Of a DNA stretch of 64,000 bases, positions 14,343 to 63,752 are shown in pieces. Numbering within the stretch: position 1 is the stretch's first letter; the number at the start of each line of letters is the position of its first letter. The DNA is from Ignavibacteriales bacterium (GTDB lineage Bacteria > Bacteroidota > Ignavibacteria > UBA10030), in contig JACQBK010000016.1 of the NCBI GenBank assembly GCA_016194505.1, positions 5,654 through 69,653 of the forward strand, written 5' to 3'. The position numbers and the translations under genes are program-made. The notes under the pieces were generated by a model. It did no database searches, was not told the DNA's origin, and saw only the letters and a program-made list of their open reading frames with translations.

Positions 14343-14888
14343 TTATTTATCAGGATTCTCTTCATCGTACTCCCATTGTACCACATTGTTGATGATGTAT
14401 TCATTGATACGCCTCAAATCATCTTCATTGCGAATGACATGTTCCCAGTAATTACGTTGCCAAACAGGTATGCGAGGCGTGTTGCGCAACTGATTGACAC
14501 GTTTTGTGACTGCGGATTTAAACAATCGAACGATGGTAGGAATGGAATTTGATGTTGGTTTTCCAAATTGTTCGTTTGTAGGGGCACGTTGCAACGTGCC
14601 CCTACTATTATTTATTAAGATTATTACGCCGTGAAAATGGTTTGGCATAATAACAAACTCACCTAGCTCTATATCGGGACGAATGATCGGTGTTTTTAGC
14701 CATTCATCTTTTACAATGTTACCGACATCACTCAATATCATTTTCCCACCAACAATTTCTCCAAACACACATTGTTTATTAAATGTGCAAATCGTTATGT
14801 AATATCCACCTTCTTGAGAATAATCATATTTTCTTAATCGAATAGAGCGGCGTTGACGGGCGATTGAATATTTATTCATCAAACACAA
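14343..14888 (-). CDS. IS200/IS605-family HuH Y1 transposase of the REP-associated tyrosine transposase (RAYT) type
   Basis: HuH motif MPNHFHGVI and catalytic-Tyr motif WQRNYWEHVIRNEDD, compare E. coli RAYT ..PEHMHCIW.. and ..QPRFWEHAIRN.. as recalled from memory. A REP/BIME-like element lies 43 nt upstream. Confidence 0.75.
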   Translation of the reverse strand: MCLMNKYSIARQRRSIRLRKYDYSQEGGYYITICTFNKQCVFGEIVGGKMILSDVGNIVKDEWLKTPIIRPDIELGEFVIMPNHFHGVIILINNSRGTLQRAPTNEQFGKPTSNSIPTIVRLFKSAVTKRVNQLRNTPRIPVWQRNYWEHVIRNEDDLRRINEYIINNVVQWEYDEENPDK

Positions 14889-15247: not shown

Positions 15248-16171
15248 CTAAAACGTCAATGTTGCGGTTGCGGTAGGGACAAATTCAACGAAGCCGTACG
15301 GTCGCAGTGTAGGTTTGAGATGCGCTTCAAGTTTCAATTGCTGGTTGAATTGCGTGGCGCTCCACGCGGCATCAAGCGCGCTTAAGATGTGGTTCGCCAC
15401 AAGCACGGAAGCGGATGTGCTCGCTATGTTAAAGAAATCATTCGCTTTGCCGCGCATAGCCGAATACTCAAGAAAGCGCGGAGAAACATTGCTCGTAATA
15501 ATATCTGAAGGCGTGATGTTTCCATCATCCCATCCGCCCGCGAATTGCGGATATTTTCCAATCAGCTCGTAATATTGTTGTTCCGGTCGCCGCGGCAAGC
15601 GGTGAGTAAAACCATTGCCGCTTTTTTTTGCAATTTGATCTTCGGCAGCATTTAACTTTGCCCAGTCAACACGCTCCCATGGCGGCTGGCTGCCACTGCC
15701 TGTTACAAGTCCCGAGAAGCCGCCAGCGTCAGGGTTCAACTGCCCGCCGTACTTCTCAATCCATTGAGCATAGAGAACAACCGACCAGTGCTCGTCGGCA
15801 TAGTTTTGGAAAAAATCCGTCTGGTTATTTCCTTTTGACGTGTAGGCGGCGTACACGATCCACAAAGCGACCTCAGCCGCCAAAAATCCTCCCGCCCTCC
15901 AATAGTTTTGAGTATACAATTCGCCCGTACCGGGAATAGCGGCGGAAAACAACCCTGCCAGCAACGGCGATTTTTTTTGTTCGTCATACTGAGAAAGCGT
16001 GCCCTTAAGAGAATCAAGAGATCCCCATTCAAACCCCGCCATCAAATCAGCTCGTAGGTTACCCGTAAGCTGAAAAGCTTTTATCCCCTCGCTTTGAGCA
16101 AATCTCATCTGCCCGATTGCCGCGGCAGGCAACAGCATAACCATCATCACTACAACACGTGAAGCGCGCAT
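15248..16171 (-). CDS. DUF5683-like hypothetical outer-membrane/secreted protein
   Basis: Signal peptide from M17 (MRASRVVVMMVMLLPAAAIGQ). The segment SPLLAGLFSAAIPGTGELYTQNYWRAGGFLAAEVALW resembles the DUF5683 core. The C-terminal ..ATATLTF is beta-barrel-like. Confidence 0.45.
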   Translation of the reverse strand: MRASRVVVMMVMLLPAAAIGQMRFAQSEGIKAFQLTGNLRADLMAGFEWGSLDSLKGTLSQYDEQKKSPLLAGLFSAAIPGTGELYTQNYWRAGGFLAAEVALWIVYAAYTSKGNNQTDFFQNYADEHWSVVLYAQWIEKYGGQLNPDAGGFSGLVTGSGSQPPWERVDWAKLNAAEDQIAKKSGNGFTHRLPRRPEQQYYELIGKYPQFAGGWDDGNITPSDIITSNVSPRFLEYSAMRGKANDFFNIASTSASVLVANHILSALDAAWSATQFNQQLKLEAHLKPTLRPYGFVEFVPTATATLTF

Positions 16172-16184
16172 GATCGCTCTCTTT

Positions 16185-19100
16185 CTATTCTCCTGTATGC
16201 ACCGCGTTTCTAAAAACATTACTCACCTGATTCAATTCAAACCCAAAGAGCACTCCTAAATAAAATCGCCATTCTTTTCCGTACGATACATCCACGTTGT
16301 TGAATGTTTTGTTGAACCGGTCGAAGCCGTACGCTCCGCTGAAAAAAATACGCGTAGGATATTGATAAAACGAAAATGCTTCGAGGCGAAGCTCGAACCC
16401 CGCATCGCTTTTCCAAGTGCTGAAAGATGGCGTTGCGCCCGTCCACGCTTCTCCGTAATCGCCGAAGACGGAGCCGTATAGTTTCGTGAAATAAAATTGG
16501 AACAGCCGAACATTGATGGAAGTCCAAATCGGAAAACGATACGTGGCATTGAACGTCGCCGCATTATTGCCGCCCAAGGCATAGAATGGATAGCCCCGCA
16601 TCCCGATAAATCCGCCGGCATAAAAATCGAAAAATCTATCCACTTCTTTCCCCAGAGTGCTATGCGCTTGCGCCGATAACGTAAGGGTATGTTTCGATAT
16701 GGGCAAGCCTATGTGCTCATTCCATTGAAGCTCGAGGCGATGAAAGCTGGGCTTGCTGTAACGAGGAACAAGGACACCACTTTGAATATCAAACTCACCT
16801 TCGGCGTTGAACTTATTTGTTTCATATGAATACTTCAATGAAAATGTCCGACCGATAGGGTTAATATCCTTATCAACGGATGGCTGAATACCTTCGTGAG
16901 TAAATTGGGCGGAAAAAACATTGCCTATGAGATATAAATTATCGAACGCGGGAGAAACTCCCACGGTGGGAATGAAAAAACCCCCGATGGCGGCGCTGTA
17001 ACGGCTGAGCGCGTACCCGATTCTTAGTTGGTTATGTTCACTAAAAATCTTTTGCCGCATCGTGACATCGAATTCAAGAAGGTTATAGGTTACGTCGGTT
17101 GGGATGCTATAATTTCGATCCGTATACACAGAGAGAGAGACATCCGTTTTGCGGGAAATGTTGTATAATTCCAACGAGACAACCGGCTCTAACCCAAGTT
17201 GATAGAGCAACGGAACTGCGTCCTTGTATTCAAACACAAAAAATAAATCCCGCTCTAAGCGCCGATTGATCGCCGCGCCACCGAACAGCGAAAACTTATC
17301 GAGCATATCGCTCGATGAAAAATAAAAGCCGGGACGAATAATATCTAAGCCAGTATTGTGAGGATTATAATTATCTACGCGCAAAAAGGGAATAACAGTA
17401 AGGCTGGTGAATACGTTCTTGTAGGGTTTCGAGTGTGATGAGACCGAATCTGGCAACGAGCGGACGATTGTAACCATTCTCGTCCCGTCCAATGCAGGCA
17501 CTTTGACCGAATTGTTCTCATTGAGGTTTTGACCGGCAGAAAAATAAGGTGTAGCTTCAACTTCCTTCGGGTTTTGTAAATAGGCAATCTTATAACCGCT
17601 GGATATATAGGAAGCGAACGCAAGCGCTCCATCAGAGTTGATGACGGGCAACAACGCTCCGCCTAGAACATTGGTAATTTGTTGTTTTGTTTTTGTCCCG
17701 ATTTCATAACGATAAATGTTAAATATCCCGCTCGCATCGGAAGCGTAGTAAATATATCTGCCATCGGGTGAAAAACCTGGGTTCCGCGAATCGCCATCGC
17801 GCACGAGTATTTCAAAGCGAGACCCATCTTCTGCAATTATCGCCACAGATTGATTATGTCCGACCGAATAACCGAACGCAATGAGTTTCCCGTCCGGCGA
17901 CCACGCAGGTGTGTACGATTGCTCGCCCTCCGTAAACTTTGTCACCTGTTTGACATTTTTTCCCTCCGCGTCCGCAATACCAATATTGACTGTGCCGTCA
18001 TGGCCGTATGCAAAGACGAGTTTCGTTCCATCGCGAGAAATGCCGGGGTTCCATGCGCGCAATCCATACGTCAGACGCTGTTCTTTTTTGGCGATAAGAT
18101 CGTATCGGTAAATATCGGAAAGCTTCGACCAATGGGGATTATCCCTGCTCAGTTTGGAATAATACACATAGCGCCCATCCGGTGAAAACGACAACGATGA
18201 CCTTGTGGTAATATCTAACTCCTGAGATTTTTTTGATTCAAGATCATAGAGATACACAGAGCTTAGACTGAAATAATCTTTGCCCTTGTTGGAGATGTAA
18301 GCAAGTTTTTTTCCATCCGGAGAAAATGCCGGATAAAAATTGCCAAAACCCTCCGGCTCGATTATTGCTCCTTCAACTCTTGCAGATGACATTGAGCTAA
18401 GCAGTTGTCGGTAGTGCTCCGTCTTGGCTTTTTTCCACTCTTGGTATAATTCTTCACCCGATTTTTCGAGAACGGCGGCGATCGCGCCATCCACCGTTGC
18501 TCGCGGCAATACGCTTAGTGCCTTAGAAATTTCACGAAGCTTATCCACGCCGTACGTTTCCGCAATATACTGCACGATAGAAAAGCCCGCATTGTACGAT
18601 GATTCGTTGCCGAGACTTGTCTTCCCGAACACCGACATTTCTTCCCACGTCAGCGGGTTACCATCGAGCATATACATCCTTAAAATCATATCACGGTGCG
18701 AATCCCAGTAATCATAATTGATGTCCGGATGATTATACTGGGCAACGCCTTCCGCAAGCCACGTCGGCACGACAAACGCTGAAAATGGGTACGAGGCAAT
18801 GACATTCGGATAGCCATACAGGACATCGGGGCGACGCTCGGCTTCATACCCCAACCATTGGAAATACACGGCGGGAAATTTTCTTCCCAGCTTCATCGCC
18901 GTTTGAATCTGGACAATATGAGTAAACTCGTGCGTTACCACATCTTTGAGCCACGGGTGGGTTCCGCGAAGCTCAAAATCAAGCGCAGGAGCCCAAATCT
19001 CGATTTTGTTATCATAAAAATATGCCGCCCCGTTTGAATAATCATCGTGGTCGCGAATAACGAAGCTGACTTTTTGATCCGGCTGATGCTGATACATTTC

Positions 19101-19301
19101 AGTAATAGGACCGTAGATTTCTTCGGCGATGACGGCTACTTCACGAGCCGTCCGTTCAGCGCCGTTGTGGAAATGCACGAGGAAGCGTGGGGTCTCAATT
19201 GTTTGCCAATTCAATTCGGGATGGGTGTATTCATCATCCTGAGCAACCGCATGACAAACGAAAAAGAATAAATAAAGAAAAAGTAGGGAGAGTGTTTTCA
19301 A
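16185..19301 (-). CDS. Large secreted multidomain protein: N-terminal HEXXH zinc-metallopeptidase-like domain, central TolB/PD40-like beta-propeller repeats, C-terminal Omp85/BamA-like beta-barrel
   Basis: Signal peptide, HEFTHIV motif, PD40-like repeats (..SPDGKKLAYISNKGKDYFS.., ..SPDGRYVYYS.., ..SRDGTKLVFAYGHDG.., ..SPDGKLIAFGYS.., ..SPDGRYIYYASDASGIFNIY..). The C-terminal 400 aa have alternating aromatic strands (..FELRLEAFSFYQYPTRIFFSGAYGFDRF..). Confidence 0.6.
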   Translation of the reverse strand: MKTLSLLFLYLFFFVCHAVAQDDEYTHPELNWQTIETPRFLVHFHNGAERTAREVAVIAEEIYGPITEMYQHQPDQKVSFVIRDHDDYSNGAAYFYDNKIEIWAPALDFELRGTHPWLKDVVTHEFTHIVQIQTAMKLGRKFPAVYFQWLGYEAERRPDVLYGYPNVIASYPFSAFVVPTWLAEGVAQYNHPDINYDYWDSHRDMILRMYMLDGNPLTWEEMSVFGKTSLGNESSYNAGFSIVQYIAETYGVDKLREISKALSVLPRATVDGAIAAVLEKSGEELYQEWKKAKTEHYRQLLSSMSSARVEGAIIEPEGFGNFYPAFSPDGKKLAYISNKGKDYFSLSSVYLYDLESKKSQELDITTRSSLSFSPDGRYVYYSKLSRDNPHWSKLSDIYRYDLIAKKEQRLTYGLRAWNPGISRDGTKLVFAYGHDGTVNIGIADAEGKNVKQVTKFTEGEQSYTPAWSPDGKLIAFGYSVGHNQSVAIIAEDGSRFEILVRDGDSRNPGFSPDGRYIYYASDASGIFNIYRYEIGTKTKQQITNVLGGALLPVINSDGALAFASYISSGYKIAYLQNPKEVEATPYFSAGQNLNENNSVKVPALDGTRMVTIVRSLPDSVSSHSKPYKNVFTSLTVIPFLRVDNYNPHNTGLDIIRPGFYFSSSDMLDKFSLFGGAAINRRLERDLFFVFEYKDAVPLLYQLGLEPVVSLELYNISRKTDVSLSVYTDRNYSIPTDVTYNLLEFDVTMRQKIFSEHNQLRIGYALSRYSAAIGGFFIPTVGVSPAFDNLYLIGNVFSAQFTHEGIQPSVDKDINPIGRTFSLKYSYETNKFNAEGEFDIQSGVLVPRYSKPSFHRLELQWNEHIGLPISKHTLTLSAQAHSTLGKEVDRFFDFYAGGFIGMRGYPFYALGGNNAATFNATYRFPIWTSINVRLFQFYFTKLYGSVFGDYGEAWTGATPSFSTWKSDAGFELRLEAFSFYQYPTRIFFSGAYGFDRFNKTFNNVDVSYGKEWRFYLGVLFGFELNQVSNVFRNAVHTGE

Positions 19302-19309
19302 GTAAATTT

Positions 19310-20056
19310 TTAAAATTTAATGTCTATACGGGTTATATGGTTCTTCTCGATGTGCAGATAAATTGATCTGCTGTTGTTTTCCGCCAATGCAAACTGAAGA
19401 ACCACATAAGGAATGATGCGGTGATTACCATAGTACACTGAACTATCAGAATTGTATAACGGAACAGGGTAAAAATCTATCGGTAGATTATCGTCGGGAA
19501 TCAAAAATTTCCCGAGCGAATCCGTCCGTGCCGTCACATTGCCGCTTACCGTAACAGGATATGATTTCTTCGTTTGCTCATCAACTATATACCGGACAGT
19601 ATAGACGCCGCTTGGCGCAGGCACACCGTTGGATTCTTTTTGATCCCATACAATGACAAAGGGTCCCCTCTCAGCGCGACCATTAAACAAAATTCGCTTT
19701 AAATGTTCTTTACGGTCATAGACTCCAACGAGAATAATCTTAACAGGGTCGTTCACCTGGAACTCTTTGGAAGGAGGGTCGTTGCTATCAACAGACCCGT
19801 AATCATAAAAAAGCTGCACGGGAATATCACGATAGGGATTCCCTAACCGGTCCGTCAATGTCCCCTCGATGCGGTACCCTGAGATCTCCGGTTCACTCGA
19901 TAAGGCAAGCGGAATTTCTCTCTCACAGCCGGACACAACGACAATCATGAAAGCATAGAACACAAAAAAACCTCTAACACTGAGGTGATTCTTCCTTGCA
20001 CTATCTTGTCCTGCTAACGTTTTCATATCCTCGACAGCACCCGGCGATCCATTCAC
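19310..20056 (-). CDS. Hypothetical lipoprotein
   Basis: Lipobox ..MIVVVSGC. The GTG at 20056 overlaps the upstream stop as GTGA; the alternative ATG start (MKTLAGQ) is at 20026. Confidence 0.45.
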   Translation of the reverse strand: MNGSPGAVEDMKTLAGQDSARKNHLSVRGFFVFYAFMIVVVSGCEREIPLALSSEPEISGYRIEGTLTDRLGNPYRDIPVQLFYDYGSVDSNDPPSKEFQVNDPVKIILVGVYDRKEHLKRILFNGRAERGPFVIVWDQKESNGVPAPSGVYTVRYIVDEQTKKSYPVTVSGNVTARTDSLGKFLIPDDNLPIDFYPVPLYNSDSSVYYGNHRIIPYVVLQFALAENNSRSIYLHIEKNHITRIDIKF

Positions 20057-23000
20057 TTCACCACTGCAATTTTGATGATCGCCACTTCATTGCGACTGCC
20101 ATCCGTTGCTTCGATTCGAGCAAGATACACGCCGCTTTGAACGTTTGAAACATTCCAAGCGACTTCGCCGTCAATACCTGCAAGGGAGCGAGCTTTTAAC
20201 TCTGTTATTTTCGTGCCCGCCAGGTCAAAAATTTTGATTGAAATATCCGCATCTTCGGGCGTGTAGTACCGAATGTGCGTTGTCGAGCCATACACGGGGT
20301 TGGGCCAATTGTAGGTTCGAGCTTTCGGCAGAAATTCTGATGGAGTTGGATTGGTAATAGCTATCACGGACCCATCCCTGTTCTGATGCAGAGCATCGCC
20401 AAGATACTGCGACCACATCATCGTCTCTGCTTTGTATGACCGATTCAACTCAACTGCTTGGAGGGAGCCTGATGCCGTGACTCTGAGAGCTCCAATTTTC
20501 CCGTTGGAGGTTTGAAACAAACTTGGGAACGCTTCACCCGCACCGCTGAGTTGGATCGGAAAGCCAGAAATTATTTGACCATTCCTATCGCACGCCGTCA
20601 CCTCACCCGTTGATTGAAGCGCAATAATGTCGGGGAACGAATCTCCGTTCACATCTCCGATGAGAGGGAAACCGACAAACGAGCCATCGCCGGAGGCACG
20701 AAGAGGGAATCCTGCCAAGAAACTACCCGCTTGGTTCATCGCATAGAGATTTTTCCCAGCCAGTAAAACTATGTCCTTCTTGCCATCGCCATCTACATCG
20801 GCAACCGAGACCGAAGAAATGCTTCCATCCGCAATAGTGTTATCAAAAACCTTGTCGGTGAGGTTTCTATTATAAACAACAACCCTTCTCCCTCCGCGTT
20901 GAGCCGCTACTATAAAATTACCCAACGACGATGTACCCCCGGCAAGAATCCACGGAAACGACGAATCACCCAAGGATACGGAAGCCAGCTCACTGTAAAT
21001 TTTGCCACCGCACGCGAAGAAATACTCGTTAGGCTTGGAAAGCGCCACTGTAGGCAATTGTGCTATTGAAGAAACAGGGCTTGTGGAGACGCTTGTTTTT
21101 TTGCTTACGGCACCGTTAAGGTTCACTTGCCAAATCGTTCCGCTTTCTCCTCCAATAATAACAGAGCGGGCAATGGAAAGGTCAGCAAAAGCAGGCGGCG
21201 TCGTTACGCGTGCGCCAAGGGGAGTAATCACTGTTTGCAGGCTGTCATACACTCCATCGTTATTTCGGTCGTACGCCGTCCAGAAATATAACGAGCTATC
21301 TTGTGCCCCAGCTAACATGTGTCCGTTGTTGATCGTCTCAAATCCGGCTATTGGAAATTGTCCTCCTGCGGATGCAAACAACCCAGTCGGATCATTTGTT
21401 TTGCTCGTCCCCTTTTGTTGGAACGCATAAACTTTTCTTCCTGCGGGGACAATGGATGCAGTAGGAAAAATTGTCGGCGGCAGCGTCGAGTTGTTTACTG
21501 AAAGTGATCGGGAAAAATTATCCAGCCGTTGAAATTGGTCATCCCCGATTTGCACCGTTGCGGTCATGCGCGGCAACCGCTTGCTGAAATTTTTAATCGT
21601 TATTAAACTTTGCGCCCCGCTGTTACTCTTGCTATTGGGACTGGAATTTTTATCGAAGAGATTTTTATACACAATGGTCGTATTGCCGTCAAACCAGCAA
21701 TCGAGGGGCCAGCCAAACTCGGTGCCGGAGCCGGCTTCTTGGAAGGTGTACGTTCTTCCCACATCTTGAGAGCCGTCGGCTTCTTCGAGATCAACGCCGC
21801 GCAGATTCTGGTTTGCATTGACCGTGTTATCCTGCAACCCTCGTGCGATCACATCCTCATCAATATGCCAGATGAGAATTCCCCCGCCTTTGAATTCCTC
21901 CGATTCAGCCAACAAACCGGGAAGCGCCCAATCGAAATCTTCCACGTCAATAACTGATCCCGTAATTGCGCTGACATCTGCAAATGCGCTATGCAAAAAA
22001 CCCACTGTATCAACAGGAAAATATTTTGTGATAATGGAATTTCCCTGACGAATCGTCAATCGCTGGCCATTCTGTTGCGGGTCGCGGCTGCGATTTTCGA
22101 TAAGGAAATATTCCCGCTCGTTAATCGGGACCTTGTAAATCGTATCCTGCCCCACATTGGTGAGGCTCACTGCCGGAAGCGAAAGAGTCGTTGTGCCCGA
22201 TGAAACAGTAATCGGCGTAACCCATCCAAGATAGACCTTTTCCCACGCCGAAGGTTCAGGCGGAAACAATCCGTTAAATGCGCTGATGCCGCCTCTATCC
22301 ATCAATCCAAATCTGCCAATACCAGAGGCACCTGTTTTCGTATTGAAGAGATCCGGCAAACCGAGATAACTTCCAAATGAATTAGCAAGCAACCCATTGA
22401 AACTTAATCGTATTGTATCAAGTACCCCACCCACAACAAGAACGCGGGATTCGGTTTCGGGGAGCACCATTGTATTGGTGATACGAAATGCGCCTTTGCT
22501 CACAGGAATTCCCGCATACGATGGGTCTTTGAGATATTCTTGAAATGTCTTAAGGTTAAACGTGATGGATGGTATGTCATTCGGCGTTGGGTCGAAGCCT
22601 AATATCTCTACTAAATCAATATCTCTCCCAGCACCAGCGTGAAACAATATAAACGCATTATACTGAGAGAACTGAAGAGCAGGATAGAGAGAGTCTGCCG
22701 TATGCCAGCTCTCGACAACAAGATCGGCAAGGGGCTTATTGTTGCTCTTATCTTTGGGAGGCGAATACGCGGACATTTTTTTCGAAAGCGTAATCGTCTT
22801 GCCAAATACTTCCCCCTTAATATTTACTTTACCGTTCGATACTTTGCGGAAGTAATTGGAAAGAAACATCAGCTTATATGCGAAATAAGCGGAATCGTGC
22901 GGAGGCGGATCAATGAGCCGCGCTGCAGAGGCGGCATCCATTTGAAATCTGCCGTTACCAGTCGTGAGTGTATCCGTGTCTTGCGGAAAATTTACCATCA

Positions 23001-23163
23001 AAGCGAGAATACGGATTGTATCCGACGAGGAAGAAGACGGGGAAAGCGCACGCGCAACAGGCGCACCCATACCCTCTCGTTTCAACGACACGGCATGGCG
23101 GACTTGAGCCTGAAGGCTACAACCGAGAAGAAAAAAAAAGAAGAGAACGCGACCAGCTTTCAT
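20053..23163 (-). CDS. T9SS cargo protein: signal peptide, M6-peptidase-like N-domain apparently lacking HEXXH, FG-GAP/VCBS-type repeats, C-terminal Por-secretion sorting domain
   Basis: The C-terminus ..YNWPNPVYGSTTHIRYY...GVYLARIEA...IKIAVVK matches the T9SS type-A C-terminal domain pattern. VADVDGDGKKDIVLLAG is FG-GAP-like. SYLGLPDLFNT resembles the M6 GLPDEY region, but no HExxH was found. Confidence 0.6.
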   Translation of the reverse strand: MKAGRVLFFFFLLGCSLQAQVRHAVSLKREGMGAPVARALSPSSSSSDTIRILALMVNFPQDTDTLTTGNGRFQMDAASAARLIDPPPHDSAYFAYKLMFLSNYFRKVSNGKVNIKGEVFGKTITLSKKMSAYSPPKDKSNNKPLADLVVESWHTADSLYPALQFSQYNAFILFHAGAGRDIDLVEILGFDPTPNDIPSITFNLKTFQEYLKDPSYAGIPVSKGAFRITNTMVLPETESRVLVVGGVLDTIRLSFNGLLANSFGSYLGLPDLFNTKTGASGIGRFGLMDRGGISAFNGLFPPEPSAWEKVYLGWVTPITVSSGTTTLSLPAVSLTNVGQDTIYKVPINEREYFLIENRSRDPQQNGQRLTIRQGNSIITKYFPVDTVGFLHSAFADVSAITGSVIDVEDFDWALPGLLAESEEFKGGGILIWHIDEDVIARGLQDNTVNANQNLRGVDLEEADGSQDVGRTYTFQEAGSGTEFGWPLDCWFDGNTTIVYKNLFDKNSSPNSKSNSGAQSLITIKNFSKRLPRMTATVQIGDDQFQRLDNFSRSLSVNNSTLPPTIFPTASIVPAGRKVYAFQQKGTSKTNDPTGLFASAGGQFPIAGFETINNGHMLAGAQDSSLYFWTAYDRNNDGVYDSLQTVITPLGARVTTPPAFADLSIARSVIIGGESGTIWQVNLNGAVSKKTSVSTSPVSSIAQLPTVALSKPNEYFFACGGKIYSELASVSLGDSSFPWILAGGTSSLGNFIVAAQRGGRRVVVYNRNLTDKVFDNTIADGSISSVSVADVDGDGKKDIVLLAGKNLYAMNQAGSFLAGFPLRASGDGSFVGFPLIGDVNGDSFPDIIALQSTGEVTACDRNGQIISGFPIQLSGAGEAFPSLFQTSNGKIGALRVTASGSLQAVELNRSYKAETMMWSQYLGDALHQNRDGSVIAITNPTPSEFLPKARTYNWPNPVYGSTTHIRYYTPEDADISIKIFDLAGTKITELKARSLAGIDGEVAWNVSNVQSGVYLARIEATDGSRNEVAIIKIAVVK

Positions 23164-23235
23164 AAAGCTCCCGGGGTTGCTCACAAGAAATACCCTTCTG
23201 CATTTTCCCAACAAAGGTTCCTTCGGAACACCCTC

Positions 23236-24348
23236 TTATTCGGGTGCTCCTCCCCAAGAGATTAAAAGAGTAAAGCGTAATGTTTCTCCGAGTGGATGCT
23301 GTTCTTCAAATGCACTAATGTAACTAAAATCAAAACCGTAAATGTCATACCGAACGCCAGCGCCGAACGTCGCAAACTTACGATTACCCGCCTGAGGGTC
23401 TTCATAGAAGTACCCTACACGCAAGGCAACCCATTTTTTATACCAATATTCGAGACCGGCTCCGGTGACAAACTCACGCATAATTTGATTGAAAGACTTG
23501 CCCGTCCACGTGGTGAAGATCGCCTTATAGAAAGGATCGTATGTTGAACCATCACCAGTCTTCTTCACAAGCAATTTATTAACGTCGAGGATACCGGTAA
23601 GGTTATTAAAGTCGCTTTCGATAATTTTATATGCAATTCCTAAACGCAGATAGGTGGGGAGCGCATCGGCTTGAGCCTTATCAATGTACGTCAATGCGGG
23701 ACCTAAATTCGAAATGTTCATCCCGGCGCTGAAGCGATCTCCCAAATCAATTCCCGTAAAGGGTATTGATGACGAACGGGGCCTATACAACAATCCGACA
23801 TCGAAACTAAAACCGGAGGCAATACCTTTCCCTTTTTCCTCAGCCGTTCCAAACGGCGCAAGATAACTGTAGATGAAACGCGCGTTAATGCCCAGAGCAA
23901 AACTTTCGGAAATTTTCGTAGCGTATCCCGCGGTAACCGCAAACTCGTACGCCTTAAAAGTCTCAATGACAGTGGGGTCAATTTCAGTTCTGTTGAATGA
24001 GCCGAGATTCAGATAGGTAATACTCGCGGCAACGGTGCCGTCCAGCTCGGGTACTTCTCTTCTATACACCAAATAATCAATGAAGAGATCGTCCAAGCGA
24101 AATGCCGGCAGCCAATTTGCATGAGAGACGCTGATTTCCTGCCCGTGTTGATACGCGAGACCGGCGGGATTCCAAAACAACGCGGAAGCATCATCTGCCA
24201 GAGCAACGCCCGCTTCTCCCATACCGCTCGCCCTTGAGTTCGGGGAAATTAACAGAAATGGCACTGCCGATGTGGTAACTTGAGCATTCAGCATTTCACT
24301 GGACGCCACGATCATAACCATCAGCGCAAACCCAACAAGATTCTTCAT
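23236..24348 (-). CDS. porV: Type IX secretion system outer-membrane channel protein PorV (LptO) family
   Basis: Signal peptide, then the PorV/PorQ signature ..ASGMGEAGVALADDASALFWNPAGL... About 370 aa with a FadL-like barrel. Sits downstream of PorU in the same orientation. Confidence 0.7.
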   Translation of the reverse strand: MKNLVGFALMVMIVASSEMLNAQVTTSAVPFLLISPNSRASGMGEAGVALADDASALFWNPAGLAYQHGQEISVSHANWLPAFRLDDLFIDYLVYRREVPELDGTVAASITYLNLGSFNRTEIDPTVIETFKAYEFAVTAGYATKISESFALGINARFIYSYLAPFGTAEEKGKGIASGFSFDVGLLYRPRSSSIPFTGIDLGDRFSAGMNISNLGPALTYIDKAQADALPTYLRLGIAYKIIESDFNNLTGILDVNKLLVKKTGDGSTYDPFYKAIFTTWTGKSFNQIMREFVTGAGLEYWYKKWVALRVGYFYEDPQAGNRKFATFGAGVRYDIYGFDFSYISAFEEQHPLGETLRFTLLISWGGAPE

Positions 24349-24454
24349 AACGCACATCCTCCAAATAAGAAATAGTTTCCGGCATCATCCCCTGCCAGAG
24401 TGAGTAAAATAGTCGTTTTTATAGTGATATTCAACAGTCGCCATTGAAGATTTA

Positions 24455-25129
24455 TTAATCAAGCACGTACTTCACACCAAATGAAGCCCCAAACGTATTG
24501 ATGCTGTTTATTGCGCTGTGGCCATAATACTTACCAACAAAATTGAATTTATACTGAAACTCCGTTCCAATAACGACCCCGCCTGGCATCGGCCAAGACA
24601 TTGTAGTCATAAAATACAGTGAGGGACATATAATACTTTCATCACGGCTAACCTGCCTACCTAAATTTAGCATACCTTCGTTCGAACTTGCATTATTTTG
24701 AGTAAAACTCGTTCCAACAATCCTCACATCGTGAACGGTTATCCATTCTAACCCAACTCCCGCCCCTACCGCGCTTATAGAACTCAAGCGTTCTAACAAA
24801 CCAACACCCAATGTAACATTGCTCCAGGAAAATGGACCTTGAACAACATTAATCCCTTGTGGATCTTGAAAAGTAACAGTCCAAAATTGATTTTGAGTTC
24901 GAAAATATTCGCCTCGTATGTTCAGCAAAAATTCTTTTCCCAGAGCAATATCCGTGAAAGCTGACAAAACAATATGATCGTTTATCTTTGAAGAATTATA
25001 TGTATTAGCATACCCAATGCGAAAACCTACTCCCGAGACGCTGACTGATAATTCATTTTCGCCTTGCTGGGCTTTTAAAACCGACGACACAAACAGCAAT
25101 GCTACGATAAAACCACGATGAGGGTTCAT
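24455..25129 (-). CDS. Small outer-membrane beta-barrel protein (PorT/OmpA-like family candidate)
   Basis: Signal peptide MNPHRGFIVALLFVSSVLKAQQ. 224 aa with alternating hydrophobic strands. Lies between porU and porV. Confidence 0.45.
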   Translation of the reverse strand: MNPHRGFIVALLFVSSVLKAQQGENELSVSVSGVGFRIGYANTYNSSKINDHIVLSAFTDIALGKEFLLNIRGEYFRTQNQFWTVTFQDPQGINVVQGPFSWSNVTLGVGLLERLSSISAVGAGVGLEWITVHDVRIVGTSFTQNNASSNEGMLNLGRQVSRDESIICPSLYFMTTMSWPMPGGVVIGTEFQYKFNFVGKYYGHSAINSINTFGASFGVKYVLD

Positions 25130-25199
25130 GATATCCTCCCTTAGTTAAGTGGCAGCGATGATGCAACATCGTGAATTAGAGTCGTATCAACTGAACCAT

Positions 25200-28100
25200 T
25201 TACCTTAGCACCGTAAGTTTTCCCAACACTTCGCTCGTAGAGCTTCGGTCGAGCGACTTTGCTATCACCTTATAAAAATAAACGCCGTTAGCGATTTCAT
25301 TACCATCCCGGTCCCGACCATCCCACGGAACTTGCACAAACCGATCTATTATAGATGGCGTGCTCAACGACTGAATCAACCTTCCTGCGATAGTATATAC
25401 TTTTATCTCTACATCTATAGGGTCTATGGAGGTTCGCTGGAATGTGAAGGTCGTTGTCCGGTTAAACGGATTCGGAAAATTGAAAACATTATGAATCGAA
25501 AACACGGACGAATCCCGAACTTCAAAATACGTGTCAGCGAAAGCTGGATTATTATACGTATCCCATGCCTTGACGGAGAGCGTATGCCGCCCTTCCGGCA
25601 AACTCGTAAGCGGATAGCGAACCTGGCCGCTTTGATAGGTATCCAATTTGCCCCGGTAAAAATCCGTCAGATCAAATGAGCGGGAATTATCCATCAACGC
25701 CTCAAGCCGGTGCCCTATGCCGGCAGTGGAGGTATTTATCCCGCTGCTATCCGTCAAGTCAACTACGAGCATCGCATTCGGTTTAACGACATCCCCTGCC
25801 CGGAATGACGGGTCATCGAGATGGATTGAGATTTTTGGACCCACAGTATCCACGCCGGCGTTAGCATTTCCGAAGATGGTAATGCTTTCCGTGTACCCGC
25901 TCGCATCGGTAGAATCGCTATACGCATACACCGCAATGCGCGAACGGCTATCGCCATAGGAAACATCTTTGGGCACAGGGAACGTTGATTTGAACAAGCC
26001 GTTCTTTACGGAAACCTCACCGCGATAAATGAGACTGCCATCTACTTCGAAATAATAATCATTGCCCCACTCCGGCACGAACACTTTTCGTTTTGCATCG
26101 AACACTTCAAGCAACGCGCGACCGTTAAACGTATCCCAGATGGTTCCATTGTTTTTTTTGAGCGCACCGTTCGCTGCAACACGTCCCAATGATGGGACGG
26201 TAATCAGTCTTGCCGTGCTCTGCCCGTTGATGCTATCCACTGTTGCCGTTGCGCGCGGCATAGCAAGCCGCATCGTTGGATCGGCGAGGAGATGGTGTTT
26301 TTGGTCATTGAGACGATTATAAATTTGCTTCGTCGCCCACATCGCATCTCCAAGGCGCACTACTTGCCCTTGAGTATTCTTCGGGAAAAAATAGCTATAC
26401 AAAGCGGCGTTCAATTGAAAATTGTCGTATGAATACACAACCCGAGCCGCCGTTACAACGCCAATGGCTCCGGTTTGCGGCATTGCCAACAACACCTCGC
26501 CGGCGCTTACTTCAAATGGATAATCATAGCGCGCGTAGTCGCACGTAGCGGCAACGACGAGGAATGGCTTACCTGTGTTTCTGATCTGGGAAAAACTCTC
26601 ATCCTTTGAAAATATTTTCTCGTGCGCCCACTGGTCGGGATTACCGTGTCCTGTATAATTGAGAATCAACGTTCCGCGATTGATTGCATCAATGATTGCT
26701 TGATTTGCAGTCGGCTTCCGGCGACCGGTTGATGTAATAACAGTGGGATATTCGACGATATAAATCTTATCTCTTTCAAAGCTTGCCGGCGTATAATCTC
26801 GTGCTATTTGCTCAGCCTGATCGGTATGGATAATCCCATCATCCCCACTGTTGGTTAACCCATCATCGGCAACAAAAGTGATTCTGTTGCGCCAAGGATC
26901 GAACGGCATGGCAGTCTCGTACGCGATAATCTTATCAACAACATCCTTTGCTTCTTTAGTCGAATGAACGGGCAATCGCCCGATAGGCAGAGAAATACGA
27001 TCCACATTAGGTGTCAGGAACACAAAAAAATCGTCGCTTGCAAGCGTAAGAATTTGATGGATAGAATTGAGCGATTCATACGGGAGGACCCAGTTCTTCA
27101 TCGAGCTTTTAATATTTTTATAGTCAAAATTGCCGGCGCCAAACAACAAAACATATTTTGGTCTGATTGTCCAGTTCGTCTGGGCATATTTTAGAAAATC
27201 CCTTATCGCCATCGGATCAATCATGCCGCAGGAAAATTCGTTGAAGATTTGCTCGGTATTAACGACAACAGTTTTTAACTGATCGTTTTTCTCGCGATGT
27301 GCTTTAAGCCGCTCGGCTTCGGAAAGAAAATCCGATGGGGCAATAATAATAAAATCCGCACCATCGGCAATGCCATGCAAATTTGAATTTGTAAGGCGTT
27401 TGGCATTTGTCGGCGTTTTATAGCCATTGGGCCCTACCACTGCAAACTCACGCACAGAACCAGCTACCTGCGGAACTTGAAATTTGACTATGGAAGTGTT
27501 CGCAGGATCAAAAACCAAATTCGTTATTTGCTTGACATTATTGTGCTGTGCAACATCGAAAGCATACACATCCGTACGCGACGAAAGATTTTTCAAATTG
27601 TATTCGATGGTTGCCGTCGTATCGGGCGAGGAGAATAATAAAAAATCGTTTACAGCTTCAAATCGCTGGCGATAGAGTATTTCAAACCAATCTACCCATC
27701 CTTTTGCGGACGAGCTACCTCTCCCAAACAGCACGCGCAATATACTCCTGTCGTTTGGGATTGCACCAAAACGATCATACGTCATAACACCGGTTTGATA
27801 TGCTTTCTCATTTTCGATGGAGTTTACATCAATGGGATATGTGAGAGCCAGAAATCCAAACGGTTGGTTGTTTTCCTGAACACGAAACGTATCAATTGAT
27901 GTTGACTGGCTTAAAAAAGTAAAACGATACGTCATTGTTTTCGTCGCATCCACACCCGGAAGAAGCGTCGTATACACAGCTGAGGTTGTCACGTCGTCAA
28001 ATTTTCTACCAATCCACTGGCGACCGGAGTTCACGAGATTTTCCGCCTCTTCTTCCACAAATACTTTGCCCTGAAAATCCGTTGGATTATAGACACCCGG

Positions 28101-29180
28101 AAGATTCGTCGAGGAGATTGTAGCCATATTTTTCCCGCGCCCTGCTCCACCGTAAGTCAGGAAATAATAATTCGTCTCCGTGTAGTGGTTAATATAGTGG
28201 AAATACGTTTTTGCGCTTGGATCGTATTTCCACCCGCGGGTTGATTTGCCGTAAAAAAGAACAAAGTCGTCTGAATCGAACACGCCATTGCCATTCCTAT
28301 CTACAACGAGGCGCGGAATTTCGTCAATCCCATCAGGTCTTGCCGCGGTAAGGTCTTCCGGAAGCTCCTCTCCCCCGTTACCAAATATTCTTATAGAATT
28401 AATATTCCCGATAGCGCTCAAAGGAATATTTGCCGCCGCAAAAAACGCTTGGTCAATCTTATAGATGCCGTTCTCCTTGACTTCCATTCTGTACCACTCC
28501 CCCTGCGCAAGCGGTGAATCTGAAACTACTTTGCTCGACTTCGCCAAACTTCGCTCCGAAGAGAACGACGGTAACTGATTCTTCAAAAACATGGAAGCCG
28601 AAAAATCTGGGCTTGCCGCTCCCAAAAATTCTATCCTCACGACGATACGAGTATACACGCGCACAGCGTTGCGCCCAAGAGCAACCTGGACGGGATAAAA
28701 CTTCAACGTGCCAAGAGTAAACCCTCGCGATTCCCCCACATCAGAAAGCTCGACAACATCTTTTGGCAAGAAATCCATAGTCTTGAATTTTTCGTCCGGA
28801 GCCGTATAACGAGGCACCACTCCAAACTCTTTGTCTTTTATGAACTGAGGGCGGGTTGCCGGTCGGACTCCAGTAACATCATGGTAATCCACTGCAAGAA
28901 CTTGGATTATATATTTATCGGAAGGGAGATTGACCAAGCCGGCGCGGAACGGCAACATGGGCGACCCTTGTTCACCATAAACAGTCACTGCTCCTTGGAA
29001 ATTAAAGCGCGTGTATTCTACTCCATCGTTGCCGGAAACAGCTGCATTGGTGAACACAGGCACGAATTCCACCACCAACGAGCGGGAGTCTTCGCTGAGG
29101 ACGCGCATGTCCGTACCCGACTGACCATACGAAGTCGCGCAGAAACCTATAAGAAGCACTAAAAAATTAATTTTCCTCAT
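25200..29180 (-). CDS. porU: Type IX secretion system C-terminal signal peptidase/sortase PorU (peptidase C25, gingipain-like) with its own T9SS C-terminal domain
   Basis: About 1330 aa. The signal peptide starts MRKINFLVLLIGFCATSYGQ (M35 of the ORF). Contains a C25-like caspase-fold region. The C-terminal ..FNFPNPFNRTTTFTF...KVYTIAGRL..GKLTVLR matches the T9SS C-terminal domain. porV is adjacent. Confidence 0.7.
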   Translation of the reverse strand: MRKINFLVLLIGFCATSYGQSGTDMRVLSEDSRSLVVEFVPVFTNAAVSGNDGVEYTRFNFQGAVTVYGEQGSPMLPFRAGLVNLPSDKYIIQVLAVDYHDVTGVRPATRPQFIKDKEFGVVPRYTAPDEKFKTMDFLPKDVVELSDVGESRGFTLGTLKFYPVQVALGRNAVRVYTRIVVRIEFLGAASPDFSASMFLKNQLPSFSSERSLAKSSKVVSDSPLAQGEWYRMEVKENGIYKIDQAFFAAANIPLSAIGNINSIRIFGNGGEELPEDLTAARPDGIDEIPRLVVDRNGNGVFDSDDFVLFYGKSTRGWKYDPSAKTYFHYINHYTETNYYFLTYGGAGRGKNMATISSTNLPGVYNPTDFQGKVFVEEEAENLVNSGRQWIGRKFDDVTTSAVYTTLLPGVDATKTMTYRFTFLSQSTSIDTFRVQENNQPFGFLALTYPIDVNSIENEKAYQTGVMTYDRFGAIPNDRSILRVLFGRGSSSAKGWVDWFEILYRQRFEAVNDFLLFSSPDTTATIEYNLKNLSSRTDVYAFDVAQHNNVKQITNLVFDPANTSIVKFQVPQVAGSVREFAVVGPNGYKTPTNAKRLTNSNLHGIADGADFIIIAPSDFLSEAERLKAHREKNDQLKTVVVNTEQIFNEFSCGMIDPMAIRDFLKYAQTNWTIRPKYVLLFGAGNFDYKNIKSSMKNWVLPYESLNSIHQILTLASDDFFVFLTPNVDRISLPIGRLPVHSTKEAKDVVDKIIAYETAMPFDPWRNRITFVADDGLTNSGDDGIIHTDQAEQIARDYTPASFERDKIYIVEYPTVITSTGRRKPTANQAIIDAINRGTLILNYTGHGNPDQWAHEKIFSKDESFSQIRNTGKPFLVVAATCDYARYDYPFEVSAGEVLLAMPQTGAIGVVTAARVVYSYDNFQLNAALYSYFFPKNTQGQVVRLGDAMWATKQIYNRLNDQKHHLLADPTMRLAMPRATATVDSINGQSTARLITVPSLGRVAANGALKKNNGTIWDTFNGRALLEVFDAKRKVFVPEWGNDYYFEVDGSLIYRGEVSVKNGLFKSTFPVPKDVSYGDSRSRIAVYAYSDSTDASGYTESITIFGNANAGVDTVGPKISIHLDDPSFRAGDVVKPNAMLVVDLTDSSGINTSTAGIGHRLEALMDNSRSFDLTDFYRGKLDTYQSGQVRYPLTSLPEGRHTLSVKAWDTYNNPAFADTYFEVRDSSVFSIHNVFNFPNPFNRTTTFTFQRTSIDPIDVEIKVYTIAGRLIQSLSTPSIIDRFVQVPWDGRDRDGNEIANGVYFYKVIAKSLDRSSTSEVLGKLTVLR

Positions 29181-29796
29181 AAAAAATAAAAAAGCCGAAC
29201 GAGGTGAAACAAACGCCCTCATTCGGCTAAACTTTTTATACCGGAGCAAAACCGAATTTGTAAAAGGCGTGTGTTGTAACATCTACTAATCCTGAACGAA
29301 ACTCCTTACACATTAGTTCAGGTACTAACCTTTAACAAATACGTTATTCTTTTACTCCGTTTGGTAATAAATGTTGGGATAAAGATACGCATTCGCTCTA
29401 AAATTGTCAAGGGAATTTTTCTTTTGTAGAACTCCAACGCAACCCCAGAAGCCGCCATCGGAAAAAACCAAATTCTGCCCTCTCCTGTCGAACGACTGTT
29501 TGATGAAGAGCACACAGTATCCGCGTAGTGTCCTCCGCGCTCCTTCGTTATTCATCATGTGTGTCGGAGAATCAATAATCATCGTGGATTTTCTGGGGCG
29601 CTTTTGAGGAGCGGGCAGACTTCAAATTCATCGCGGCAAAATAAACTCCAGAAATACTGCCATATCATATTTTGGAATACAAACCCTGTAAGCTTTGTAT
29701 AATAGCACATAAGGCGGCTTATGCGATTTCAATTGCTTATGAGCTAAAAAAATGGTATATTTCTTCGATTTTTTATGAATTTTACGTTTGGAGCCT

Positions 29797-31275
29797 ATGT
29801 CAAAACCGCTTAATATTTTGTTCCTTTCAAGTGAAGTAGAGCCATTTGCAAAAACTGGTGGCTTAGCCGATGTTTCCAGCGCCCTTCCGCAAGCGATAAA
29901 AGAGCTTGGTCATGAAATTCGCATTATGATGCCGCGGTACCGCTTCATCAGCGAACGAAAATTTAAGCTTCATGACATCATTCGCTTGAAAGAAATACCC
30001 ATTCCAATCGGAAAGAACTCCGAAATAGGAAACGTCAAATCTTCCTTCATCAGCAATTTGAAGGAAAAGGTCCAAGTCTATTTTCTCGACAACGCTAATT
30101 ATTTCGGCAGAGACGGCATCTACCAAAGCCCCGTAGGGAAAAAAGATTACAAGGATAATGACGAACGATATATTTTCTTCTGCCGCGGCGTGCTGGAAAC
30201 ATTGAAGCGGCTTGGCTGGCAACCGGATATTATCCACTGCAACGATTGGCAAACGGGGATCGTCCCTGCGTATATCAAAACTCTCTACGCTTCGGATGAC
30301 TTCTTCAAGTCAATCAAAACGGTTTTTACGGTTCATAACATGGCATATCAAGGGGCGTTTACGTCGGAGTCATTTGAAAAATCCGGGTTGCCCAAGAGCA
30401 TGTTTCATCCGGAAGGAGTAGAAGCGTACGGAAAATTTAACTTCCTCAAGACCGGACTCCATTATGCCGATGCAATCACGACCGTGAGCGAACGCTATGC
30501 GGAAGAAATTTGCAACTCCGATGAATACGGCGCCGGGTTAAACGGACTTCTTGCAAAACGTAAAAAAGACTTGAAGGGCATACTCAATGGCATAGATTAT
30601 GAAATCTGGAATCCTCTAACCGACGAATATACGTATCGAAAATTTGACGTTAAATCCATGGATGCGAAACTCGATAACAAAAAGGCGCTCCTGAAACGCT
30701 TCAACATACCGTATAAAGAAGGGGTCGCGCTCATTGGGGGTATTTCACGACTTGTTGAGCAAAAAGGATTTGACCTTGTTCTTGAAATTCTCGACGAGAT
30801 GATGAAGCTCAACGTGCAGTTCATTTTGCTGGGATCGGGCGAAAAAACGGTCGAAAAGAAATTTGAAACAATGCAGAAAAAATATCCTCACCAGATGGGG
30901 GTGCTTTTCGGATTTGATAACGAGTTAGCACATTTGATTGAGGCTGGAAGCGATCTCTTTTTAATGCCCTCCCGGTACGAGCCGTGCGGTCTCAACCAAA
31001 TGTACAGTATGCGGTACGGCACAATTCCTGTCGTTCGTGCTACCGGAGGTTTAGATGATACCGTGGAGGATTACGCGGGCGGCGGAAAAGGGACCGGTTT
31101 CAAGTTTGAGAAATACGATGCGAAAGAATTGCTGAAAGCTATCCAGCGGGCTATCAAAGTCTATCAACAGCCCGAGGAATGGAAGAAGCTGATGCGGAAC
31201 GGGATGCTGAAAGATTTCTCGTGGGAACATTCCGCCAAGAAATACGTCAACTTGTATAAAGAACTTTTGAGATAA
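29797..31275 (+). CDS. glgA: Glycogen (starch) synthase, GT5
   Basis: N-terminal ..ILFLSSEVEPFAKTGGLADV (KTGGL motif) and the C-terminal GT-B domain ..SRYEPCGLNQMYSMRYGTIPVVRATGGLDDTV.. Confidence 0.85.
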   Translation: MSKPLNILFLSSEVEPFAKTGGLADVSSALPQAIKELGHEIRIMMPRYRFISERKFKLHDIIRLKEIPIPIGKNSEIGNVKSSFISNLKEKVQVYFLDNANYFGRDGIYQSPVGKKDYKDNDERYIFFCRGVLETLKRLGWQPDIIHCNDWQTGIVPAYIKTLYASDDFFKSIKTVFTVHNMAYQGAFTSESFEKSGLPKSMFHPEGVEAYGKFNFLKTGLHYADAITTVSERYAEEICNSDEYGAGLNGLLAKRKKDLKGILNGIDYEIWNPLTDEYTYRKFDVKSMDAKLDNKKALLKRFNIPYKEGVALIGGISRLVEQKGFDLVLEILDEMMKLNVQFILLGSGEKTVEKKFETMQKKYPHQMGVLFGFDNELAHLIEAGSDLFLMPSRYEPCGLNQMYSMRYGTIPVVRATGGLDDTVEDYAGGGKGTGFKFEKYDAKELLKAIQRAIKVYQQPEEWKKLMRNGMLKDFSWEHSAKKYVNLYKELLR

Positions 31276-31282
31276 TAAGCGC

Positions 31283-31873
31283 GTGAAGGTTGAAGAAGTC
31301 GGCATTTTTTTTGACCGTGACGGTACCCTCAATACCGAAATAGATTTTCTCTCCCGTCCTGAGGAGCTTCAACTCATTCCCCATGCAGCCCGGGCAATAC
31401 GAGAGGCGAACGAATTCGGGGTTAAAGTGTTTGTCATTACGAATCAATCGGGGATTGCCCGGGGGTTATTCACCGAACACGATCTGGAAGCTATCCATAA
31501 ACGGTTAAAGGCATTGCTGGCGAAAGAACACGCTTATCTCGACGGCATATATTTTTGCCCGCATCATCTTGAGTATGGAACTAACGAATACAAAAAAGCA
31601 TGTGACTGCCGAAAACCAAAATCGGGGATGCTGACAAGAGCCGCGCACGAGCATACTATAAAGCTCAATCAATCGTTTGTCATCGGTGACCGATGTATTG
31701 ATATGGAGGCAGGCAAAGCAGCAGGATGCACGACAGCACTCGTGTTGACCGGCTATGGAACCGTAGATCGCAATGAATGCTCCCATGCCGATTTCATTGC
31801 ACAAGATGCATACGAGGCATGGCTTCACATTAAAAAAATTCTTGTCACGCATCATCGCAAACCTAACAATTAA
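31283..31873 (+). CDS. gmhB: HAD-IIIA phosphatase, D,D-heptose-1,7-bisphosphate phosphatase (GmhB)-like
   Basis: GTG start. Motif I FFDRDGTLN. Zn-binding CPHH..x..CDCRKP. GDRCIDMEAG is motif IV. Confidence 0.6.
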   Translation: MKVEEVGIFFDRDGTLNTEIDFLSRPEELQLIPHAARAIREANEFGVKVFVITNQSGIARGLFTEHDLEAIHKRLKALLAKEHAYLDGIYFCPHHLEYGTNEYKKACDCRKPKSGMLTRAAHEHTIKLNQSFVIGDRCIDMEAGKAAGCTTALVLTGYGTVDRNECSHADFIAQDAYEAWLHIKKILVTHHRKPNN

Positions 31874-31893
31874 ACGTTAAAAAGGCATTACTC

Positions 31894-33033: not shown

Positions 33034-33036
33034 TAT

Positions 33037-63692: not shown

Positions 63693-63752
63693 ACTTACGG
63701 AATTGACGTCAATGAATACGAACAATTATGCTACTTCAGGGTGAGAAAAAAT

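Follow-up and report, generated by a model that had tools for sequence, protein, structure and literature searches.

Introduction

The T9SS (type IX secretion system) has so far been dissected almost wholly in Porphyromonas and Flavobacterium. The closest described counterparts of the locus considered here are the PorU/PorV/PorQ/PorZ complex of Porphyromonas gingivalis and the porU-porV pairs of Bacteroidia and Flavobacteriia, together with, for one of its products, the proteins with a propeller and barrel layout that Heinz and Lithgow named 'WD40-like Omp85' in 2014, and for whose members Table S3 of that study gives hits to both TolB and an aminopeptidase (PMC4104836). For the Ignavibacteriota, reviews state only that a T9SS 'may be present' (PMC11285876). 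We analysed 64,000 nucleotides of DNA from an Ignavibacteriales bacterium (assembly GCA_016194505.1, contig JACQBK010000016.1, positions 5,654 to 69,653 of the forward strand), hereafter the window, and describe within it a minus-strand locus that joins porU and porV to a set of further envelope genes.

Seven successive minus-strand open reading frames (ORFs) fill positions 15248-29282 of the window when the longest starts of the ORF listing are taken, and 15248-29180 with starts that we picked from Shine-Dalgarno-like motifs and ortholog N-termini, confirming the seven co-directional genes reported in a first-pass annotation of this DNA. In the direction of transcription they are porU, a gene for a 224-aa protein, porV, a gene for an M6-like inactivated metalloprotease (M6i), a lipoprotein gene, a gene for a 1038-aa Omp85-family protein, and a gene for a DUF5683-like protein. 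We consider it likely that the locus is the canonical porU-porV operon of the Ignavibacteria, vertically inherited and class-wide, together with lineage-specific accessory genes.

A canonical porU-porV pair

The porU gene (25200..29180, minus strand) encodes a T9SS sortase of 1326 aa, whose parts are a signal peptide, a cysteine peptidase domain of the C25 type and a C-terminal sorting domain (CTD) of type A. The product matches the PorU model NF033707 with 993.8 bits (cutoff 420) over profile positions 2-1094 of 1095, and Peptidase_C25 (PF01364) with 311 bits over positions 1-374 of 374, while the CTD model TIGR04183 matches residues 1269-1342 of the long ORF with 25.1 bits (cutoff 23). His845 (YTGHGN) and Cys880 (VAATCDY) are invariant across 46 sequences, and by analogy would form the catalytic dyad. 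The porV gene (23236..24357, minus strand, with ribosome-binding site evidence placing the start probably at 24348 rather than 24357) encodes the T9SS outer-membrane shuttle protein; it passes NF033710 narrowly (279.2 bits, cutoff 250), and also NF033709 (329.7 bits, cutoff 90) and PF19572 (133.8 bits, cutoff 27). The PorU and PorV assignments of the first-pass annotation are therefore borne out by domain searches (994 bits against 420, and 279 against 250).

The models for a second sorting pair were not reached by either protein, with PorU2 (NF052324) scoring 161.3 bits against a cutoff of 450 and PorV2 (NF052325) 56.1 against 325, and as the canonical equivalogs were passed, the two genes are to be read as the canonical porU/porV pair. 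The window PorV likewise falls below the PorQ model (104 bits, cutoff 220). The PorZ model (NF052228) gave 15-16 bits against a cutoff of 260, matching at the level of the CTD only, and no PorZ or PorQ homolog was identified within the locus. Among the other window ORFs, 20 were scanned, and no T9SS core gene was found in this set.

The pair thus resembles that of P. gingivalis and of the Bacteroidia and Flavobacteriia in its PorU and PorV equivalogs, the C25 domain, the His/Cys pair, the CTD of PorU and the neighbouring positions of porU and porV. By homology to the Porphyromonas and Flavobacterium systems, PorV would collect cargo through the CTD as it leaves the translocon, and PorU, as a C25-type cysteine peptidase, would remove the CTD. 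In contrast to the Bacteroidia arrangement, the Ignavibacteria operon is extended in all genomes sampled by the genes for M6i, the WD40-like Omp85 protein and the DUF5683-like protein.

Gene order and gene packing across Ignavibacteria

We investigated the distribution of this arrangement through a profile search for M6i orthologs, in which at least 552 species-representative genomes gave matches. From these we took the 80 best loci, all labelled as Ignavibacteria-type or Bacteroidota metagenome-assembled genomes, with M6i identities of 37-65%; their six-frame ORFs were searched by phmmer with the window proteins, and adjacency was counted per informative locus. PorV preceded M6i in 72/72 loci and PorU preceded PorV in 54/54, while the Omp85 gene followed M6i in 58/58 and the DUF5683-like gene followed the Omp85 gene in 52/52. 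The survey of gene order suggested by the first-pass annotation accordingly shows that no informative locus (among the best 80 of at least 552) departs from the order PorU-PorV-M6i-(lipoprotein)-Omp85-DUF5683-like, and the adjacency of the core genes holds down to 37% M6i identity. Outside the core, glgA lay upstream in 43/51 loci, and a DASS transporter lay downstream in 6/50. As the core adjacencies are total and the flanks variable, the five-gene core is steadier than its surroundings. The recurrence of the arrangement in every informative related genome is not due to chance, and the M6i, Omp85 and DUF5683-like genes are locked into the porU-porV operon in every genome sampled; any role of their three products in the T9SS is one that we infer.

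With the chosen starts, the intergenic gaps from porU to the DUF5683-like gene are 70, 97-106, 72, 26, 8 and 13 nt, and ribosome-binding sites were found at the gene junctions of the module. The 4-nt overlaps of the first-pass annotation disappear unless each ORF is taken at its longest, the chosen starts leaving gaps of 8-106 nt throughout, and its description of operon-like packing is upheld by these short distances. In many loci the Omp85 ORF directly abuts the M6i stop. The seven genes are packed like an operon, and the short gaps, the ribosome-binding sites at the junctions and the invariant order suggest that they are co-transcribed.

By direct reading, all seven products carry export signals, comprising six type I signal peptides and one lipobox. 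We also observed that in all six non-lipoprotein signal peptides the likely cleavage site is followed by Gln at +1 (A|Q or G|Q), in keeping with the 'Q-rule' of Bacteroidetes, whose frequency has already been reported as high, at 77%, for Ignavibacterium album (PMC5837995).

M6i, an inactivated M6-like protein

The gene for M6i (20053..23163, minus strand) encodes a protein of 1036 aa consisting of a dead M6-like domain, a beta-propeller with FG-GAP repeats, a linker and a type A CTD. It is a full-length member of the NCBI family NF052323, T9SS-dependent M6-like inactivated metalloprotease (853.9 bits against a cutoff of 600, over profile positions 3-1043 of 1043); at family level nothing distinguishes it from this already catalogued family, and what is documented here is its fixed place after porV. 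The CTD is recognised both by PF18962 (Por_Secre_tail, 32.4 bits against 27) and by TIGR04183 (28.9 bits against 23). The first-pass annotation had described a 1040-aa cargo with a T9SS CTD, resembling M6 peptidases and seeming to lack HEXXH; all of this stands except the length, the 1036-aa protein being identical to NCBI protein P0001 from an Ignavibacteriales metagenome-assembled genome.

The zinc-binding HEXXH motif is found in 0/12 M6i sequences (the window protein and 11 orthologs), its site being occupied by A[NA]SxGS, followed by a conserved xLGLPDLF, and we conclude from this replacement that M6i is inactive as an M6 peptidase. The N-terminal domain of M6i, which has kept xLGLPDLF but lost HEXXH, is weakly similar to immune inhibitor A (peptidase M6), and the models of active M6 peptidases stay under their cutoffs (PF05547, 19.3 bits against 22; TIGR03296, 73.1 bits against 110.8). 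An AlphaFold2 (AF2) model places the propeller at residues 550-910 and the CTD at 949-1034. A search of M6i against PDB sequences returned nothing meaningful (best E 0.27). PorZ (PDB 5M11) and M6i are both CTD-bearing T9SS proteins built on beta-propellers, although the match between their folds is weak.

M6i is catalytically dead and stands next to porV in all 72 informative loci, a pattern more like that of a fixed partner than that of a generic substrate. We suggest, with less certainty than for PorU and PorV, that M6i may be a fixed, surface-exposed, non-enzymatic partner of these two proteins, with a role that would be PorZ-like and would not imply homology to PorZ.

The first-pass annotation had instead read the cluster as a dedicated PorU/PorV attachment-complex unit that has substrates of its own; in a self-contained unit of this kind the M6-like protein would be private cargo and the extra barrel a private component. 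In favour of this, the type A CTD of the M6-like protein marks it as a T9SS substrate, its gene comes immediately after porV, and NCBIfam provides PorU2 and PorV2 models for putative second sorting pairs. However, the window pair passes the canonical models and fails those of the second pair, the locus occupies one conserved genomic position in at least 54 species-level genomes, the supposed cargo is catalytically dead in 12/12 sequences, and nearly all relatives lack the barrel gene. The locus is found class-wide, usually beside glgA and among housekeeping genes. Of the readings considered here, a dedicated unit with substrates of its own has the least support, and is in our judgement improbable.

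The WD40-like Omp85 protein and its DUF5683-like neighbour

The 1038-aa protein (16185..19301, minus strand) combines a gluzincin-type HEXXH domain, a TolB-like propeller, a disordered linker and an Omp85-type beta-barrel. HEFTH at residues 124-128 and E184, together an intact HEXXH+E metalloprotease site, are invariant in 25 orthologs, and all 25 match Peptidase_MA_2, for which the window protein scores 32.0 against a cutoff of 32.4. PD40 repeats are matched by Pfam in the window protein and in 25/25 orthologs, and Omp85 (PF01103) in 4/25 orthologs, with a best E of 6e-8. In the AF2 model (predicted local distance difference test, pLDDT, 69.8), residues 1-305 form a helical domain, 310-575 the propeller, 587-621 a disordered linker and 624-1017 the beta-barrel. 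The Pfam, ortholog and AF2 evidence therefore agrees with the combination of HEXXH, TolB and Omp85 elements proposed in the first-pass annotation, and the TolB-like propeller N-terminal to the barrel, the C-terminal Omp85-type barrel and the gluzincin N-terminal domain are those by which the WD40-like Omp85 subfamily is recognised. Like the proteins of that subfamily, the window protein has no POTRA domain; unlike them as published, it is encoded inside a porU-porV operon with a DUF5683-like gene always following it, and the paper is silent on a link to the T9SS (PMC4104836).

We additionally noted that the C-terminus of the protein (16185-16235, minus strand) extends about 17 residues past the last barrel strand, LGVLFGF. 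This tail forms a low-confidence helix in the model, is poorly conserved, and overlaps the longest possible frame of the DUF5683-like gene.

The DUF5683-like gene (15248..16171, minus strand) encodes an envelope protein of 307 aa with a signal peptide, a DUF5683 hydrophobic hairpin, a conserved domain of about 150 aa and a C-terminus ending in F. For the domain assignment of the first-pass annotation, 19/20 orthologs give a DUF5683 match at E<=0.01 (best E 2.3e-8), and the window protein itself falls just under the Pfam cutoff (PF18935, 24.6 bits against 26.7) and is matched only over positions 2-49 of the 151 in the profile. Conservation within the family is good, with the motifs TGNLRxDL, EQQYYELIGKYPQF and VEFVPTAxxxxxF, the last of which lies at the C-terminus and resembles an outer-membrane beta-signal. 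The Omp85 and DUF5683-like proteins together might provide the sorting complex with outer-membrane anchoring, assembly or periplasmic proteolysis, a suggestion that we make with less certainty than those for PorU and PorV.

One operon or several units

The main rival to a single canonical operon with accessory genes is that two to three separate units have been kept together by inheritance or operon economy, with porU-porV (and perhaps M6i) belonging to the T9SS, and the Omp85 and DUF5683-like proteins forming a general pair for outer-membrane biogenesis or proteolysis. Several observations favour such a division, and some of them also weigh against the reading that we prefer. The WD40-like Omp85 proteins were defined independently of the T9SS, and the list of their members, in which we take some entries to be from Ignavibacterium and Melioribacter, presumably also includes deltaproteobacterial entries, the organisms in each case being assigned from accession codes. 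To our knowledge these deltaproteobacterial organisms have no T9SS, and the presence of WD40-like Omp85 proteins in such apparently T9SS-less lineages would mean that the architecture is not intrinsically bound to this system. Neither the Omp85 protein nor the DUF5683-like protein contains a T9SS-specific domain in Pfam and NCBIfam searches, and a BamG-family assembly factor is encoded nearby. The unrelated glgA is syntenic too (43/51), so that the clade keeps local synteny well and gene order alone overstates functional linkage.

Other points against the reading that we prefer concern the models and the regulatory signals. Both AF2 models (M6i and the 1038-aa protein) are of only moderate confidence, with pLDDT of about 69-70. 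In a Foldseek search with M6i, PorZ (5M11) ranked 5th of 350,542 chains, with TM-scores of only 0.18-0.24; its alignment was the longest among the matches listed. A scan for promoters and terminators stayed at chance level (23 found against 25.3 expected, and 25 against 19.7), and is for this reason uninformative on operon structure. A weak terminator-like hairpin, with 7 pairs of which 4 are G-C, lies at 24378-24399 (minus strand) between the 224-aa gene and porV, and may represent a trace of the insertion or an attenuator that is partial.

Against separate units stand the core adjacencies of 58/58 and 52/52, compared with 6/50 for the downstream flank, and the gaps of just 8-26 nt in the window, along with the abutment of the M6i stop and the Omp85 ORF in many loci. 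We therefore regard separate units as a possible explanation, clearly less probable than a canonical porU-porV operon with lineage-specific accessory genes.

It is also conceivable, though in our estimate unlikely, that the T9SS of the Ignavibacteria, and perhaps of other non-Bacteroidia lineages of the Fibrobacteres-Chlorobi-Bacteroidetes (FCB) group, has M6i, the WD40-like Omp85 protein and the DUF5683-like protein as components not recognised before, doing the jobs that PorZ and PorQ have in Porphyromonas. In such a system M6i, with its propeller, would act as a surface adaptor presenting the anchor or the cargo to PorU, and the Omp85 barrel would serve to hold the complex or to assemble it, aided by its own periplasmic protease and propeller and by a partner bearing a beta-signal.

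Every single family of the locus is known or named, and we found no description in our literature search of the fixed linkage of M6i, WD40-like Omp85 and DUF5683-like genes to porU-porV; nor did that search find a relevant paper on Ignavibacteria T9SS gene clusters, on DUF5683, on PorU2/PorV2 or on the M6-like inactivated metalloprotease. We know of no function assigned to the WD40-like Omp85 subfamily since 2014. The invariant five-gene core offers three concrete candidate accessory components, including an Omp85-family protein whose protease domain is intact. A functional link would show how the sorting step is built outside the Bacteroidia and would assign a role to the WD40-like Omp85 proteins; without one, the locus is just a housekeeping operon that has been well conserved.

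Optional genes of the locus

Two genes are dispensable add-ons to the core, that for the Ig-like lipoprotein, which about half of the lineages have, and that for the 224-aa protein, which is confined to a small clade. The lipoprotein gene (19310..20026, minus strand) encodes immunoglobulin-like (CarboxypepD_reg-like and FlgD_ig-like) domains, with FlgD_ig matched in 15/21 and CarboxypepD_reg in 9/21 of its orthologs. The lipobox GC|EREIP is conserved among them, in agreement with the lipoprotein call of the first-pass annotation. The gene occurs in about half of the loci, and elsewhere M6i abuts the Omp85 gene directly. In two loci (L025, 13206-13892, and L029, 13149-13844), the stretch between M6i and the Omp85 gene holds an ORF of about 230 aa that is unrelated (15% identity), and this slot, elsewhere the place of the lipoprotein, seems to accept different small genes.

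The 224-aa gene (24455..25129, minus strand) has a strong GGGAGG ribosome-binding site upstream of its ATG, and is flanked by gaps of 70 nt on the porU side and 97-106 nt on the porV side. Among the 80 loci it was identified only in the window and in one distant locus (L018). Relatives are few, with 3 in an indexed search of 5.8 billion proteins and 27 representatives among 1.84 billion. The closest homologs, on three contigs (L081-L083), come after porU, and before porV where the contig is long enough, and the distant copy in L018 likewise stands between porU and porV; in all visible contexts the gene is between these two genes or, at the end of a contig, next to one of the two. It is thus a rare insertion of one small clade, outside the conserved module.

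The protein has a signal peptide, matches no Pfam or NCBIfam family, and belongs to a family whose alignment shows alternating hydrophobicity. A Pfam scan of 21 relatives assigned no family, apart from a weak OMP_b-brl match in 1/21 (E 0.03). A small outer-membrane beta-barrel is plausible on the basis of these sequence features. Of the extra 224-aa barrel that the first-pass annotation placed between PorU and PorV, the position is correct, while its membership in the conserved module is not, and a barrel fold is plausible.

Genomic setting of the locus

Upstream, the module is bounded by a divergent glycogen synthase gene (glgA, 29788-31275, plus strand). A sigma-70-like promoter candidate, TTGACA-17-TATCTT (29382..29410, minus strand), lies about 200 nt upstream of porU; it is the top site of the consensus scan, agreeing at 10/12 positions, and is a consensus match alone. 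Sites of this kind are no more numerous in the region than chance would give. Past glgA, at 31283-34284 (plus strand), we identified gmhB (a lipopolysaccharide heptose phosphatase), a gene for a DNRLRE-domain protein and one for a BamG-family beta-barrel-assembly protein (255 bits, cutoff 250); these are further envelope-biogenesis genes beside the T9SS operon.

Downstream, the module is bounded by an ORF (14343-14888, minus strand) resembling REP-associated tyrosine transposases (RAYT), to which the family model matches only C-terminally (64 bits, cutoff 80). This ORF contains, in frame, a perfect 28-bp palindrome, GTAGGGGCACGTTGCAACGTGCCCCTAC, at 14578-14605, which occurs once in the window. 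The RAYT-like ORF had raised the idea of a mobile island, which we rejected in view of the flat base composition over the window, the housekeeping neighbours (gmhB, the BamG-family protein, SHMT, tatC, uvrA, pckG and purK) and the conservation of the position across species. Rfam and tRNA scans of the window returned no matches.

Some further features lie away from the locus. The uvrA gene is split into two overlapping ORFs (6251-7864 and 7789-9153, both on the minus strand), which cover UvrA profile positions 4-429 and 422-941, and this points to a frameshift arising either from a pseudogene or from an assembly error. A serine palmitoyltransferase-like gene was identified at 44096-45310 (minus strand; 472 bits, under the cutoff of 640), and at 62001-63725 (minus strand) a TPR protein similar to the Myxococcus motility lipoproteins Tgl and GltE (76 bits, under the cutoff).

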